This document shows positions 5,345 through 59,890 of a stretch of 64,000 nucleotides of DNA, in pieces. The notes below the pieces were generated by a model. It ran no database searches. It worked only from the letters and a program-made list of their open reading frames with translations, and was not told where the DNA came from. The position numbers and the translations under genes are program-made. Source of the stretch: an uncultured Clostridia bacterium (GTDB lineage Bacteria; Bacillota; Clostridia; Oscillospirales; CAG-272); the NCBI GenBank assembly GCA_947630015.1, contig CANRFY010000008.1, forward strand, positions 5,976 to 69,975. The letters are read 5' to 3'. Position 1 is the first letter of the stretch, and each line of letters opens with the position of its first letter.

Positions 5345-5585
5345 TTCGGGGCGCTGCCCCGAACCCCGCTTAAGGAAACTTTTTGAAAAAAGTTTCCTTA
5401 AGAATCTTTCAAAAACTTTTATTACAGGTGTTATGGGGCGAATGTGTCAGACTCTGCGCTGCGCGTTCGTGCGATCGCGAAGTAGTCGCGCGGAGCGCGA
5501 ACACCGATGGTTTAGAGCGAATGTGTCAGACTCTGCGCTGCGCGTTCGTGCGATGACGAAGTAGTCGCGCGGGACGCGGACACCG
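5345..5585 (+). repeat. Intergenic palindromic repeat family, copy 1 (module A plus two module B)
   Basis: TTCGGGGCGCTGCCCCGAACCCCG-CTTAAG palindrome, then twice GTGTC..CTCTGC..CGAAGTAGTCGCGCG..ACACCG. Confidence 0.92.
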
Positions 5586-18591: not shown

Positions 18592-18715
18592 TAACGAGCA
18601 GCACAACGGCTGACACACTCGCCAAATAACTATTGTAAGGAAAGTTTTGAAGGGATTCTTAAGGGGAACTTTTTCAAAAGTTCCCCTTAAGCGGGGTTTG
18701 GGGCAGCGCCCCAAA
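18592..18715 (-). repeat. Repeat family copy 3 (reverse orientation; A plus degenerate start of B)
   Basis: Reverse complement TTTGGGGCGCTGCCCCAAACCCCG-CTTAAGGGGAACTTTT-ga-AAAAGTTCCCCTTAAG-AATCCCTTCAAAACTTTCC. Confidence 0.9.
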
Positions 18716-20844: not shown

Positions 20845-21151
20845 TTTCCGTTTGCTCTGAACAGTTTATTTACCGCCCTACATTTTATCACACAAAGCCG
20901 TCATATGTCAACAAAATTCGGCCCCGCGTCCGTTTTCGCAAAAATAGAGCCGTTTTGTCTCGATTCGGAACCGTTCGAGCGCTATGCGCACGGAACTTCC
21001 TTTGCCGCATTTTTTCGCGTTCAACTTTTGTAAAATCGAACAAATCCCCGCGGGAATGTTTGTGGAAATTTTTGGCATCGAGATTCTTGCTATTTATGGA
21101 AGAATATGGTATCATAATTGCACAGTCAAAGCAAAGGACGGAGATAACGAA

Positions 21152-21928
21152 ATGGAACAGAATAAAAAAATATTGATAGCGGACGAAAACGGGGATTCGA
21201 GGAAGAGATGCCGCGACGCGCTCGTCCGCGCGGGATACAGGACGGTCGAGGAGGCCTACAACGGCGAGGACGCTCTGATGAAGATAAACCGCATCCACCC
21301 CGACGTCGTGATCGCGGACATATGGCTTTCAAAGCTCGACGGGATAGGACTTTTGCGCAGCTGCCGCACGATGAATTTCGGGCAGGACAAATGTCCCGTA
21401 TTCATCATCATATCGCTCGTATCGAATCAGAATATACTGCTCGACGCCATGAACGCGGGCGCGTCGCTGTGTCTTCTCAAGCCGCTCGATTACGGCAGTC
21501 TCGTCAATCATATAGAATCGCTGACCTCGTCGCGGCCGGACAGCGCCGCGCGCGGCGAGACGGCTGGCGCGCCCGACATCGAGACGCAGGTGACGAAGAT
21601 CATCCATCAGATCGGCGTTCCGGCGCACATCAAGGGATATCAGTATCTGCGCACCGCGATCCTCATGACGATCGCCGACAGCGACATAATAAATTCCGTG
21701 ACGAAGGTCCTGTACCCGTCGGTGGCGAAAAAATATTCGACGACGACGTCGCGCGTCGAACGCGCGATCCGCCACGCGATCGAGGTCGCATGGGATCGCG
21801 GCGACGTCGATACGCTCAATTCTTATTTCGGCTATACGATCCAAAACTCGCGCGGCAAACCGACAAATTCCGAATTCATCGCCATGATCGCCGACAACCT
21901 GCGACTCAAGTATAAAATGTATAATTGA
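21152..21928 (+). CDS. spo0A: Sporulation master regulator Spo0A
   Basis: Receiver domain plus [44 protein letters not shown]. Confidence 0.98.
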
Positions 21929-21932
21929 TATA

Positions 21933-22190
21933 TTCGGGGCGCTGCCCCGCACCCCGCTTAAGGAACTTCTTATAAGAAGTTCCTTAAGAATCTTCAAGAA
22001 TTTTTATTACAGGGGTTATGGGGAAAGTGTGTTTGCCACTGCGCTGCGCGTTCGTGCGTGAACGAAGTAGTCGCGCAAGCGCGAACACCGCCTCGCGGGG
22101 CTTCGCCCCGCACCCTGACTTAAGGAACTTCTTATAAGAAGTTCCTTAAGAATCTTCAAGAATTTTTATTACAGGACAAGTGTGTCAGGC
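21933..22190 (+). repeat. Repeat family copy 4 (A-B-A)
   Basis: Two perfect CTTAAGGAACTTCTTATAAGAAGTTCCTTAAG palindromes separated by module B. Confidence 0.92.
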
Positions 22191-22352
22191 TTTGTCAACA
22201 GTCACGGGCGCGGTCTTTACGGCCGCGCCTTTTTCGCGCGTTTTGCGGATATTGCCGACATGATATAAAATATTAGTCTTGACTTTGACCCGATTATACA
22301 ATATAATCTAATATGTGACATACGTCAGAATAAAGACGAAAGGCGGCTCCGC

Positions 22353-23093
22353 ATGGCGTTTAAGGAAGTTTTCAAGCGCGTCGAGAAGAAATACATCATC
22401 AATGAAGCGCAGTTCGCGGCGCTTGCGCCCGACGTCGCCGAATATATGTGCGGCGACTCATACGGCGAAAGCACGATATACAACATCTATTTCGACACGC
22501 CGTCGCACACACTGATACGTTCGTCGATCGACAAGCCCGTTTACAAGGAAAAGCTGCGTCTGCGCTGCTACGGCACGCCGACGGACGATTCGACGGCGTT
22601 CATTGAGATCAAGAAGAAGTACAAAGGCGTCGTTTACAAGCGGCGCATCAGTCTCCCCTACCGCGAGGCGATGGATTTTACGTGCAGCGGCAAAATTCCG
22701 CCGTCGCGGAGCGACTCGCAGATCGCGCATGAGATCGCGTGGCTTTTGTCGTTCTACAATGGGATCGCGCCTGCGATGATCCTCTCCTACGACAGGATCG
22801 CGTTCTTCGGCAAGGACGATCCGAATCTGCGCATCACGTTTGACAAGAATATCCTGTTCCGCGACTACGATCTCGATCTGTCGCTCGGCGCATACGGCCG
22901 CGAGGTACTTCCCGTCGGCACGCGTCTCATGGAGATAAAAATCCCCGACGCCATGCCCGTATGGCTGGCGCAGAGACTAAGCGAGCAGTCGATCTTCCCG
23001 ACGTCGTTCAGCAAATACGGCTCGGCATACATAGACATCATGAACAAAACGGGAGATTCCGAATCAGAAAAAGAGGAGATAACAAATGCTTAA
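22353..23093 (+). CDS. VTC/CYTH (polyphosphate polymerase-like) domain protein
   Basis: R.EKKY, YFDT, KLRLR.Y, EIKKK, RITFD, FSKY. Confidence 0.9.
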   Translation: MAFKEVFKRVEKKYIINEAQFAALAPDVAEYMCGDSYGESTIYNIYFDTPSHTLIRSSIDKPVYKEKLRLRCYGTPTDDSTAFIEIKKKYKGVVYKRRISLPYREAMDFTCSGKIPPSRSDSQIAHEIAWLLSFYNGIAPAMILSYDRIAFFGKDDPNLRITFDKNILFRDYDLDLSLGAYGREVLPVGTRLMEIKIPDAMPVWLAQRLSEQSIFPTSFSKYGSAYIDIMNKTGDSESEKEEITNA

Positions 23094-37946: not shown

Positions 37947-38277
37947 TTTCGGGGCGCTGCCCCGCACCCCGCTTAAGGGAAACTTTCCGCAAGCGGAAAG
38001 TTTCCCTTAAGAATCCCCGCAAAACTTTCCCTACAAAGGTTATAGGGCAAGTGTGTTCAACTCTGCGATGCACGTTCGTGCAAGGGCGAAGTAGTCGCGC
38101 GAGCGCGAACACCGATTTTCGGGGCGCTACCCCGAACCCTGACTTAAGGAACTTCTTATAAGAAGTTCCTTAAGAATCTTCAAGAATTTTTATTACAGGG
38201 ATTATAGGGCAAGTGTGTTCGACTCTGCGATGCACGTTTGTGCAAGGGCGAAGCAGCCGCGCGGGGTGCGAACATCG
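37947..38277 (+). repeat. Repeat family copy 6 (A-B-A-B, 170-bp period, non-identical units)
   Basis: Units start at about 37947 and 38117 with different central palindromes. Confidence 0.92.
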
Positions 38278-40664: not shown

Positions 40665-41756
40665 ATGAAAAAATCAATAAAATTTGCGGCGCTTGCGCTT
40701 GCGATCGCGATCGCGGCGGCTGCCGCCGTTTCATGCGGCGTTAAAAACGACGGCAAAGGCAGCGACACTGATACGGACGCCGGCGTTTATGCGACGGCGG
40801 ACGGCACGGATACGGCTGCGCCCGACACGGATGCGCCCGATACCGACGCGCCCGACACGGACGCGCCTGATACAGACGCGCCCGATACGGATGCGCCCGA
40901 TACGGATGCGCCCGTCACAGATGCGCCCGTCACAGACGCCGACACCGAACCAGAAGGCGCCGATCCAGTCATGGGCGATCACGAGGCGCAGCCTCTGCGC
41001 TATGTCGCCCTCGGCGACTCGATCGCATACGGTCAGGGACTCGCCGACCCCGAGGGCGAACGCTATTCCGCGCTCGTCGAGGCCGCGCTCGACGCGTCCG
41101 GCATCTACGACTGCGAATCGTTCAATTACGGCATAAACGGGCTTCAGAGCGGCGGTCTCATCGACGACATCGCGGACAATTTCGCGCCGGAGCTTAACGG
41201 AGCCGACGTCGTTACTGTCAGCATCGGCGCGAACAACGTGCTGTCGCCGTCCGTATCGATGCTGACGCAGTATGCGATCAATCTTCTCGTCGGCGACGAG
41301 ACGCGGCGCGGCGAGCTTAATTCGGAGCTTTATAAAAATTTCCGCGCCGACACGGACGCGGGTATCGCGGAATTCGAGCGCGATCTGCCGAATCTGATCG
41401 CGCTGATACGCGTCGCCGCGCCCGACGCGCGCATCATTTTCCAGACTATATACAATCCGTATGCGGGAGTGTCGCTGACGCTCGATTTCTCCGTTGAGCA
41501 AATCGCCATGGCGACGCTGTCCGACGAGCTTGTGACGCGCCTCGACGATATCATCAAAGATAACGCCGATAAGCTCGGATACGAGGTCGTCGACATCTAC
41601 GCCGCGTTTTCCGGCGAGGACGGCGTCGTGAACGCCGGCTCCGGCATCGGCTCGTCGCCGTTTTCAAATCTCGATCCGCATCCGACGGCGAAGGGACACC
41701 GCATAATCGCCGACGCGATAACGGATATGCTGCTGCCGAAGGAGGCCGACGTATGA
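40665..41756 (+). CDS. SGNH/GDSL hydrolase lipoprotein
   Basis: VSC lipobox, ALGDS, IGANN, DPHP. Confidence 0.88.
   Translation: MKKSIKFAALALAIAIAAAAAVSCGVKNDGKGSDTDTDAGVYATADGTDTAAPDTDAPDTDAPDTDAPDTDAPDTDAPDTDAPVTDAPVTDADTEPEGADPVMGDHEAQPLRYVALGDSIAYGQGLADPEGERYSALVEAALDASGIYDCESFNYGINGLQSGGLIDDIADNFAPELNGADVVTVSIGANNVLSPSVSMLTQYAINLLVGDETRRGELNSELYKNFRADTDAGIAEFERDLPNLIALIRVAAPDARIIFQTIYNPYAGVSLTLDFSVEQIAMATLSDELVTRLDDIIKDNADKLGYEVVDIYAAFSGEDGVVNAGSGIGSSPFSNLDPHPTAKGHRIIADAITDMLLPKEADV
40818..40937 (+). repeat. Eight 15-bp coding tandem repeats (APDTD x6, APVTD x2)
   Basis: GCGCC(C/T)G.(C/T)AC.GA(C/T) units. Confidence 0.95.
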
Positions 41757-59340: not shown

Positions 59341-59890
59341 AACAATACCCCCGTATGATGCAGTCATACAGGGGTCAGTCCGCCGAACAGTATTGAGATC
59401 GCACAACTTTCGGGGCGCTGCCCCGCACCCCGCTTAGAGGGACTTTTGTAAAAGTCCCTCTAAGAACTCCTCAAAACTTTCCTTACATGGGTTATGGGGC
59501 AAGTGTGTTCGACTCTGCATCGCGCGTTCGTGCGATAACGAAGTAGTCGCGCGAGGCGCGAACACCGCCTTTTCGGGGCGCTGCCCCGCACCCCGCTTAG
59601 AGGGACTTTTGTAAAAGTCCCTCTAAGAACTCCTCAAAACTTTCCTTACATGGGTTATGGGGCAAGTGTGTTCGACTCTGCATCGCGCGTTCGTGCGATA
59701 ACGAAGTAGTCGCGCGAGGCGCGAACACCGCCTTTTCGGGGCGCTGCCCCGAACCCCGCTTGCAGATGCTTCGCATCTGCCGTCTTAATAATCTTCAGGA
59801 ATTTTTATTAAAACGGTTATGGGGCAAGTGCGGTGCGCATATTTTCGGCAGGCTGACTCCCGTATGATCTAATCATACAGGGGCATCATT
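59341..59890 (+). repeat. Repeat family copy 7: two identical 163-bp A-B units plus a partial third, flanked by 47-bp inverted repeats
   Basis: Units start at 59408, 59571, 59734; flanks 59341-59387 and 59844-59890 match at 35/47 as reverse complements. Confidence 0.9.

Follow-up and report, generated by a model that had tools for sequence, protein, structure and literature searches.

The mirror tails that follow the hairpins of a dispersed intergenic repeat found behind spo0A covary with their own stems in three data sets; the association is real, with the qualification that it is statistical and not a strict rule. In this mosaic repeat the core comprises two hairpins, and behind each of them lies a third segment, a mirror of that hairpin’s 3′ arm. 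In the proposed mechanism, this third segment would fold back into the major groove of its own hairpin. The gene-sense strand would then form T.A-T and C+.G-C triples (class III, DNA or RNA) and the opposite strand G.G-C, A.A-T and T.A-T triples (class I, DNA only, pH-independent), with the classes as defined in the text of Holder et al. 2015 (PMC4666352), where class III is the one class of triplex open to RNA. This fold, or a protein that reads it, would serve the spread and upkeep of the element or a role at gene ends. Comparison of the copies makes it quite possible, as a tentative reading, that hairpins and tails are kept compatible with a fold-back third strand and that the fold or its reading protein is needed for one of these purposes.

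The window, which is the whole 64-kb stretch of DNA analysed here, contains about ten units of an approximately 163-nt mosaic repeat, some of them in tandem. The unit behind spo0A (element at 21933–22010) has its hairpin A 6 nt 3′ of the spo0A TGA. The features of this locus, together with one further copy in the window, are as follows.

20984–21928, + strand: open reading frame of spo0A (Pfam Spo0A_C, E = 3e-46; Response_reg, E = 7e-18), with the TGA ending at 21928.
21935–21949, + strand: hairpin A, CGGGGC-gct-GCCCCG, read from the sequence and present as a predicted helix.
21950–21956, + strand: tail of hairpin A, ca-CCCC-g, in which the C-run is the mirror of the 3′ arm GCCCC.
21957–21988, + strand: hairpin B, a perfect 32-nt palindrome, CTTAAGGAACTTCTTA and TAAGAAGTTCCTTAAG, with a 14-bp predicted helix.
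21989–22000, + strand: mirror tail T, AATCTTCAAGAA, divided as AA-TCTT-C-AAGAA, recognised by covariation across copies.
22001–22013, + strand: joint TTTTTATTACAGG, conserved, 3′ of the tail, with few variants, which are independent of the stem.
22014–22085, + strand: second half of the mosaic unit, GTAG and the hairpin TCGCGCaaGCGCGA, identified by eye and without a mirror tail.
22086–22152, + strand: second copy, with hairpin A CGGGGC-ttc-GCCCCG and tail ca-CCCT-ga.
22206–22234, + strand: GC hairpin and TTTTT 3′ of the array, identified by eye.
22279–22307, + strand: promoter-like TTGACT-17-TATAAT of the next gene (11/12).
18645–18673, − strand: further copy, 3′ arm AAAAGTTCCCCTTAAG and tail AATCCCTTCAAAA, matched by 0/100 shuffles.

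The 5′ arm of hairpin B carries a purine block, AAGGAA, followed by CTTCTT, and its 3′ arm, when mirrored, reads GAATTCCTTGAAGAA, to be compared with tail T at 21989–22000. In the second copy the palindrome B (22109–22140) and tail T (22141–22152) are identical to those of the first. The second half of every mosaic unit, 22014–22085 in this case, contains CGAAGTAG and then a GC hairpin, TCGCGCgaGCGCGA. The hairpin with TTTTT at 22206–22234 is likely to be the spo0A terminator; it was absent from the terminator scan, its 9-nt loop being longer than the limit of 8 in the tool used. The predicted RNA fold of the whole stretch has an energy of −34.4 kcal/mol (z = −5.7, equalled by 0/200 shuffles), and both hairpins are kept in this fold and in the predicted DNA fold of the opposite strand. 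A long-range helix in the RNA fold, between CCCC (21952–21955) and GGGG (22012–22015), was set aside since no matching changes were seen by eye among the copies, as was a promoter on the opposite strand (TTGAAG-17-TATAAG, by eye), which fits the ATAAGA loop variant only and is absent from the promoter scan. Searches of Rfam at the gathering score returned two tRNAs and nothing else, and those at E up to 10 on 21880–22260 gave chance-level matches only. Contigs assembled from four DNA sequencing runs break at repeats across 21400–22600. Elsewhere in the window, at least 8 head-to-tail copies of a 15-nt unit (GATACGGATGCGCCC-like) lie at 40785–40954 and are probably a coding pentapeptide repeat.

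In the source genome (G000; 2.39 Mb, 98% complete), a search keyed to the tail and the joint that follows yielded 108 matches, which reduce to 96 copies at one register per copy. After removal of 15 of the 96 as other families or false matches, before arrays, GC skew and placement were counted, about 81 copies were assigned to the repeat family, in 63 arrays. The hairpin B slot is variable and is filled by simple palindromes of many sequences or by composites with two extra hairpins. Relatives in the genus carry only the first half-unit (hairpin A, hairpin B and tail), and a match to the element is present in 10 of the 41 genomes searched, the source genome included. In some copies of the source genome hairpin B is missing or has been excised between short direct repeats (GAACCCC.., AAACTTT..), as at C2(−)116802, C12(−)16740, C6(+)35056 and C58(+)2302, which suggests that the slot gains and loses its palindrome by recombination.

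Other repeats occur alongside this family. Twenty-two contig ends of the source genome stop within two related insertion sequences (13 and 9 ends), examples outside the window being C8:1-75, C3:143280-143325, C21:1-64, C24:1-70 and C53:1-60. These ends adjoin CTTTTTnn / nnAAAAAG, the interior of the insertion element is absent from the assembly, and at least 8 of the 22 fall within a hairpin B, at its apex. The end that is present in the assembly codes for RKCLGWKSPEEVFFNKSLHFT followed by a stop, which we take to be a C-terminus of the kind typical of IS30-family transposases. At least 12 copies belong to a second repeat family that is unrelated, with AAGGGCCTCTTTCTTGCGAGAAAGAGGCCCTT and then AACATAATTTAAAAACTTTATAAAGTTTG (e.g. 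C2:54243, C4:9376 and C11:33172); its tail is not a mirror of its hairpin, and six contig ends stop in a hairpin related to it.

All of the repeat copies quoted in the original prediction are found in the window, with one correction: the first hairpin reads -ca-CCCC at 21935–21955, where -aa-CCCC had been given. Copy 4 of that prediction is the sequence at 21957–22000, which recurs at 22109–22152 and in the unit at 38119; copy 1 is in the unit at 5346, copy 3 is the minus-strand copy at 18645–18673 and copy 7 is in the units at 59410 and 59573. The prediction that the tail mirrors the stem and changes with it holds as a statistical statement and not as a strict one, exceptions being common. 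Across 38 unique types from the source genome, the mirror of the 3′ arm fits its own tail better than it fits shuffled tails (z = 4.5; 1/20000 shuffles), a direct copy of the arm less so (z = 3.4; 10/20000), and the reverse complement (z = 0.8) and complement (z = 0.7) give no signal; the copies are related, so these and the other shuffle counts overstate independence. Among the pyrimidine cores, 32 of 40 types are informative, with the mirror better in 18, the direct copy better in 2 and 12 ties. The corresponding ratios in the three sets are 18:2, 19:3 and 11:0. Clear cases of a mirror that is not a direct copy, given as arm and tail, are GTTTTCCCCTCG with AACTCCCCTTTC, GTTCCCTCCCG with AACCCTCCTTC, GTTTCCCTAAG with AACCTTTC and GTTTTCCTAAG with AACTTTTC, and by hand count 17 or more different tails in the source genome are each paired with a stem that fits. 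The mosaic has three further hairpins (AACTTTCCGC.., GCAGATGC.. and TCGCGCG..) that lack a mirror tail by eye and serve as internal controls.

The lengths of the runs point the same way. In 50 unique types of the long class, drawn from the source genome, its relatives and other genomes, run lengths correlate in mirror order for the T-run (r = 0.51; 2/10000 shuffles), the C-run (r = 0.33; 113/10000) and the foot T (r = 0.42; 10/10000), and the direct-repeat cross terms are not significant (r = 0.13 and 0.17). When 75 unique types are compared without gaps from the purine/pyrimidine junction, positions 2, 3 and 5 are identical in 44/75, 55/75 and 39/73, values matched by 4, 7 and 0 of 5000 shuffles, respectively; position 1 carries no signal and positions 6–7, at the turn, are below chance. 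The turn passes over about two stem levels. The test was replicated on a metagenome set of 120 loci, with 81 simple copies and 67 unique hairpin/tail strings; the parser retained 25 discovery pairs and, from the 67 strings, 19 metagenome pairs, collapsed to basal arm and tail (31 of 148 were unparsed in another parsing step). The 17 types that were new in the metagenome contigs give z = 2.7 for the mirror (15/5000 shuffles) and z = 1.5 for the direct copy (453/5000), with the mirror better in 11, ties in 6 and the direct copy better in none.

Hairpin A shows a parallel association in 107 parsed copies of the source genome: the arms GGGGC/GCCCC have the tail CCCC 71 times and CCCT 8 times, and the arms GGGGT/ACCCC have CCCT 21 times and CCCC 3 times. 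These are two alleles whose loops also differ, perhaps the product of a single event. Types differ from one another chiefly by T/C exchanges in the tail and 3′ arm and by A/G exchanges in the 5′ arm, the pattern that a switch between T.A-T and C+.G-C requires in the three segments.

Departures from the mirror are of several kinds. The third strand had been described as consistently one C shorter than the G-run; this is true of 13 of the 25 long-class types in the source genome (hand count), the others differing by 0, 2 or more. One tail, AATCCCCGC, is paired with the unrelated stems GTTTCTTAAG, GTTTCCCTTAAG, GTCCCCCTTAAG and GCCCCCCTTAAG. As read from the listings, about 6 composite hairpins obey the mirror rule and about 9 break it. 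In the cross-phylum set, fixed 8-nt windows give z = −0.5 for the mirror and 5.3 for the direct copy, and 12-nt windows give 3.9 and 4.7, respectively.

The cross-phylum set comes from a search of species-representative genomes with a 25-letter IUPAC pattern that combines hairpin A with its tail and the beginning of hairpin B, which returned at least 119 matching stretches. Among the matches listed, the core is present in Clostridia (Oscillospiraceae, Christensenellales and Acutalibacter), in Alphaproteobacteria (Gluconacetobacter, Methylobacterium, Acidisphaera and Rhodopila) and in Synergistaceae, Chlamydiia, Planctomycetota and Myxococcota. Its usual form is TGGGGCGCTGCCCCA-ta-CCCC-g-CCAAAGGGA..TCCCTTTGG-AATCCC. 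A core of 45–50 nt (hairpin A, CCCC, hairpin B, AATCCC) is near-identical in isolates of Gluconacetobacter, Methylobacterium, Acidisphaera and Acutalibacter (loci L022–L140) and is shared, again near-identical, by metagenome-assembled genomes of at least 5 further phyla; in the Acetobacteraceae units are often found as facing pairs, with a few tens of bases between them. Cultured carriers of the core include Acutalibacter caecimuris M00118 and Gluconacetobacter takamatsuzukensis LMG 27800.

A register test was applied to the 81 types that could be parsed of 101 unique cross-phylum types (20 unparsed) among the matches listed. The distance from the arm C-run to the end of the stem, minus the tail leader, equals 2 in 18 of 22 foot types, such that the tail C-run comes two places early (r = 0.84; 0/10000 shuffles, over the 22 foot types). 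The foot types include TTTGG/AAT, TTGG/AA, TGG/A, TTGAG/AAT, TGAG/AA and TAAG/AA. The constant C-run offset is a fixed fold-back register. In one case, CTGAGGGA..TCCCTCAG with the tail ACTCCCT, tail and 5′ arm are exact parallel complements.

The mirror of a 3′ arm is the parallel complement of the purine 5′ arm, which yields a T.A-T / C.G-C code, the code of a pyrimidine-motif third strand. With T over A-T pairs and C over G-C pairs, the triples are the isomorphous ones of the pyrimidine motif, and on the opposite strand the tail is purine and antiparallel to the purine arm. A triplex is the only known nucleic-acid structure that gives a mirror code; the helix in this case would be short and irregular. 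The sequence has the class III order of three blocks (purine, pyrimidine and Hoogsteen, the third a mirror of the second). In the text of Holder et al. 2015 (PMC4666352) the size limits require 6 or more matched triplets in the stem under ITxF and more than 7 under Hoyne, and allow loops no longer than 6 or 10 nt. The element lies outside these ITxF and Hoyne limits, and its first ‘loop’ is a sub-hairpin of 12–16 nt. The longest unbroken canonical run is 5 in 37/78 and 6 in 30/78 simple copies, and among 41 unique types just 7 have a run of at least 6. The mean longest run is 4.85 with the copies’ own tails and 4.50 with other tails, and 0/300 shuffles reach the former value. The proposal that base triples are under selection is supported in that the tail tracks the mirror of the arm, with T/C changes in all three segments, and weakened in that the canonical triples are short.

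A complete triplex would need a bulge and C opposite C-G pairs. A C in the 5′ arm beside the pyrimidine block is accompanied by a C in the tail, as in GGTTCCTAAG with tail GACCTCC and GGGGCTAAG with tail AACCCC, and the fit rises when the scoring reads G as C. For a C-G pair, triples better than one with C in the third strand are known. On the sense strand several neighbouring C residues would have to be protonated, on the opposite strand none; runs of 3–5 C+.G-C are disfavoured at neutral pH, as stated for the C-rich TMECO strand in the text of Holder et al. 2015 (PMC4666352).

The original prediction had also read an alternate-strand triplex from the change of arm of the purine tract in mid-stem. 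Among the unique simple types, those with TTCTT in the 5′ arm also have AAGAA in the tail (13/13), and both are absent in 60/60; this test replaced one of the apical G against the purine tract, which was confounded by loop letters. The association is what an alternate-strand triplex predicts, but Watson–Crick pairing between tail and apex explains it equally well: the tail ends in C and an A-run, and TCTTCAAGAA is nearly the reverse complement of TTCTTnnAAGA. In the locus L125, with arm AAGAAA and tail AAAGAA, the G is in mirror register.

The comparison with the BoxC/PIT repeats was apt, as the layout is the same (Holder et al. 2015, PMC4666352). According to the text of that paper, in which the motifs are credited to Hoyne and Maher 2000 and 2002, the BoxC/PIT/TMECO repeats are defined by a hairpin and a mirror block, and one of them folds into a triplex in vitro. 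Like the repeat described here, they are as presented there short, multi-copy and intergenic, consist of a hairpin and a third block that mirrors one arm, and give purine-motif and pyrimidine-motif versions on complementary strands; neither function nor partner is known for either. TMECO, however, is CCCTCNCCC N3-6 GGGNGAGGG N3 GGGNGAGGG, class II and near-invariant, with no orientation bias reported in that text (PMC4666352), whereas the present repeat has the class III/I order and an unrelated sequence, its ‘loop 1’ is itself an A/T helix of 4–6 bp, two units are arranged in tandem, variation in the stems is tracked by the tail, and it lies in gene-sense orientation past stop codons (38 vs 14 arrays). 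Membership of TMECO/BoxC was rejected as the consensus is absent, the element reading CGGGGCgctGCCCCG-ca-CCCC and CTTAAGG..CCTTAAG-AATCTTC. We file the element as a putative repeat of the intrastrand-triplex type, separate from TMECO in both sequence and class. The terms ‘covari’, ‘compensatory’, ‘Clostridi’ and ‘Firmicutes’ are absent from the main text of Holder et al. 2015 (PMC4666352), the supplements of which may list such motifs. A literature search with GGGGCGCTGCCCC returned nothing relevant.

Other families of bacterial repeats share different properties with the element. Like the enterobacterial BIME/REP, the pneumococcal BOX and the neisserial NIME, it is built of modular units with interchangeable hairpin modules and forms tandem arrays between stop codon and terminator, with one family per species group. 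Unlike BOX or REP, its double-hairpin core is common to several phyla, and to our knowledge mirror tails are not a described feature of BIME/REP, BOX or NIME. GTAG with a palindrome is the layout of REP elements, and in REP/BIME a RAYT (Y1 transposase) gene lies between such units; the second half-unit has GTAG and a GC hairpin, and the Y1_Tnp match of the source genome is an 89-aa fragment. As in H-DNA, the 3′ arm and tail form a pyrimidine mirror repeat that could fold back in supercoiled duplex with the same triples, but the arms are short (5–8 nt) and the purine centre AAGAA interrupts them, so that the tract is not purely homopurine-homopyrimidine. If transcribed, the element could form U.A-U and C+.G-C triples near the mRNA 3′ end and hinder 3′ exonucleases, as the ENE/MALAT1-type RNA triple helix does; in the element the third strand is pyrimidine and 3′ of the hairpin. 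An ENE-type helix proper was rejected, as no U-rich internal loop clamping an A-rich 3′ tail is present in the element.

A protein partner, either mobilising or chromosome-organising, had been suggested and finds no support: there is no DUF559 protein, the Y1 transposase is a fragment and no neighbouring gene is common to the copies. DUF559 has 0 matches in the source genome and is also absent from the element-rich genomes G016 and G009, which have the most copies; the matches in the genus are in G017, G001 and, weakly, G015 (within a 1694-aa frame). In G017 the DUF559 gene (94.8 bits; loci L149, at G017:C126:8409-10242, and L152) ends in CCTCCCTC-cga-GAGGGAGG-GG at a contig end. On its sequence this is a TMECO-like hairpin of a different repeat family. 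Y1_Tnp is represented in the source genome by a single 89-aa fragment (model positions 62–121) at C50:7397-7573. No protein family recurs beside the element at 119 loci among the matches listed, the largest cluster comprising 3 loci; clustering was at E < 1e-8, a threshold that small divergent proteins could escape. No inverted pairs framing a small gene were obvious in the source genome.

These searches bear on the view that there is no triple helix and that the foot of the hairpin and a single-stranded pyrimidine tail together serve as the site bound by a protein such as a transposase, nuclease or RNA-binding protein, with tail and arm alike since both are read by it. We regard this as unlikely. 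The core is kept nearly letter for letter across phyla, as mobile elements keep their recognition sites, the fixed C-run register of the tail would equally be expected of a protein ruler, protein sites tolerate a rule as loose as this one, and the insertion of an IS30-like element at the hairpin apex makes the hairpins at least accessible targets. On the other hand, no candidate emerged among DUF559, Y1 transposases and neighbour families, and dimeric proteins generally read inverted or direct repeats and not mirror repeats. It is rather unlikely that the likeness is a by-product of stem and tail being inherited or exchanged as one module of low-complexity C/T tracts. Modules are clearly shuffled (composite hairpins, promiscuous tails), the association at hairpin A involves just two alleles, and the direct-repeat reading also beats shuffles, both in the source genome and across phyla; against this stand the preference for mirror over direct in all three sets, the correlation of run lengths in mirror order only, the 17 or more tails with fitting stems and a register rule that spans 22 foot types and many phyla among the matches listed. 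Templated copying would not be expected to make mirror repeats.

If the tail formed Watson–Crick pairs with its own hairpin at the apex, as a switch or pseudoknot, this would account for the reverse complementarity of TTTCAAAA to the apex TTTTGAAA, for a constant tail C that faces the loop G and for the association of TTCTT with AAGAA. Such pairing leaves unexplained why the C-run and T-run of the tail track the basal arm and why the register rule extends to short hairpins with no A/T apex; the 14-bp hairpin would have to open, yet it stays closed in the predicted folds, and the G of L125 is in mirror and not in full antiparallel register. We regard this pairing as very improbable. A G-quadruplex formed by G-runs of the opposite strand in alternation with the hairpins, which has reportedly been proposed for BoxC-like elements of E. 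coli, is extremely improbable. The opposite strand of the short cross-phylum form does have four G-runs (GGG, GGG, GGGG and GGGG), but the C-run of tails in the source genome is often a single C (AATCTTC, 24 copies), so that the fourth G-run is missing, and a quadruplex would not need the T-run to follow the stem.

The placement of the arrays bears on the gene-end role of the fold-back reading. Of the 63 arrays in the source genome, 38 have a co-oriented open reading frame on the 5′ side, 14 an opposed one and 10 are inside crude open reading frame calls; hairpin A starts 1–16 nt past the stop codon in 28 of the 38. At the cross-phylum loci, among the matches listed, an open reading frame ends within 40 nt upstream in sense only at 42, in antisense only at 14, in both at 10 and in neither at 45. 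A terminator-like site lies 3′ of the array on the sense strand in 20/63 and on the antisense strand in 8/63, against a background of 20/400 random windows. Local GC skew indicates no replication-strand bias (31 vs 32 arrays). The co-oriented placement at gene ends suggests that, for the most part, transcription of the upstream gene includes the elements. Stem mismatches, in which a signature of sense RNA was sought, comprise 20 of G.T type, 34 of A.C type and 15 others (p = 0.08) and give none. It seems quite improbable that the sense transcript folds hairpin and pyrimidine tail into an RNA triple helix behind the stop codon, which would block 3′ exonucleases or act on terminating ribosomes, and that the DNA family spreads through this function. 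If true, this would be a gene-end RNA element spread across bacterial phyla.

Intrastrand triplex repeats have been known in bacteria for about 25 years, without function or comparative evidence, the latter being lacking because the E. coli family hardly varies. In the repeat described here the stems vary and the third segment follows, which provides natural compensatory pairs for testing selection on three-stranded pairing. Its placement a few bases past stop codons, in the direction of the gene, points to simple reporter assays at the ends of genes. That Clostridia, Alphaproteobacteria, Myxococcota, Chlamydiia and others share a near-identical core raises the question of how so short an element is kept up in, or moves across, phyla.
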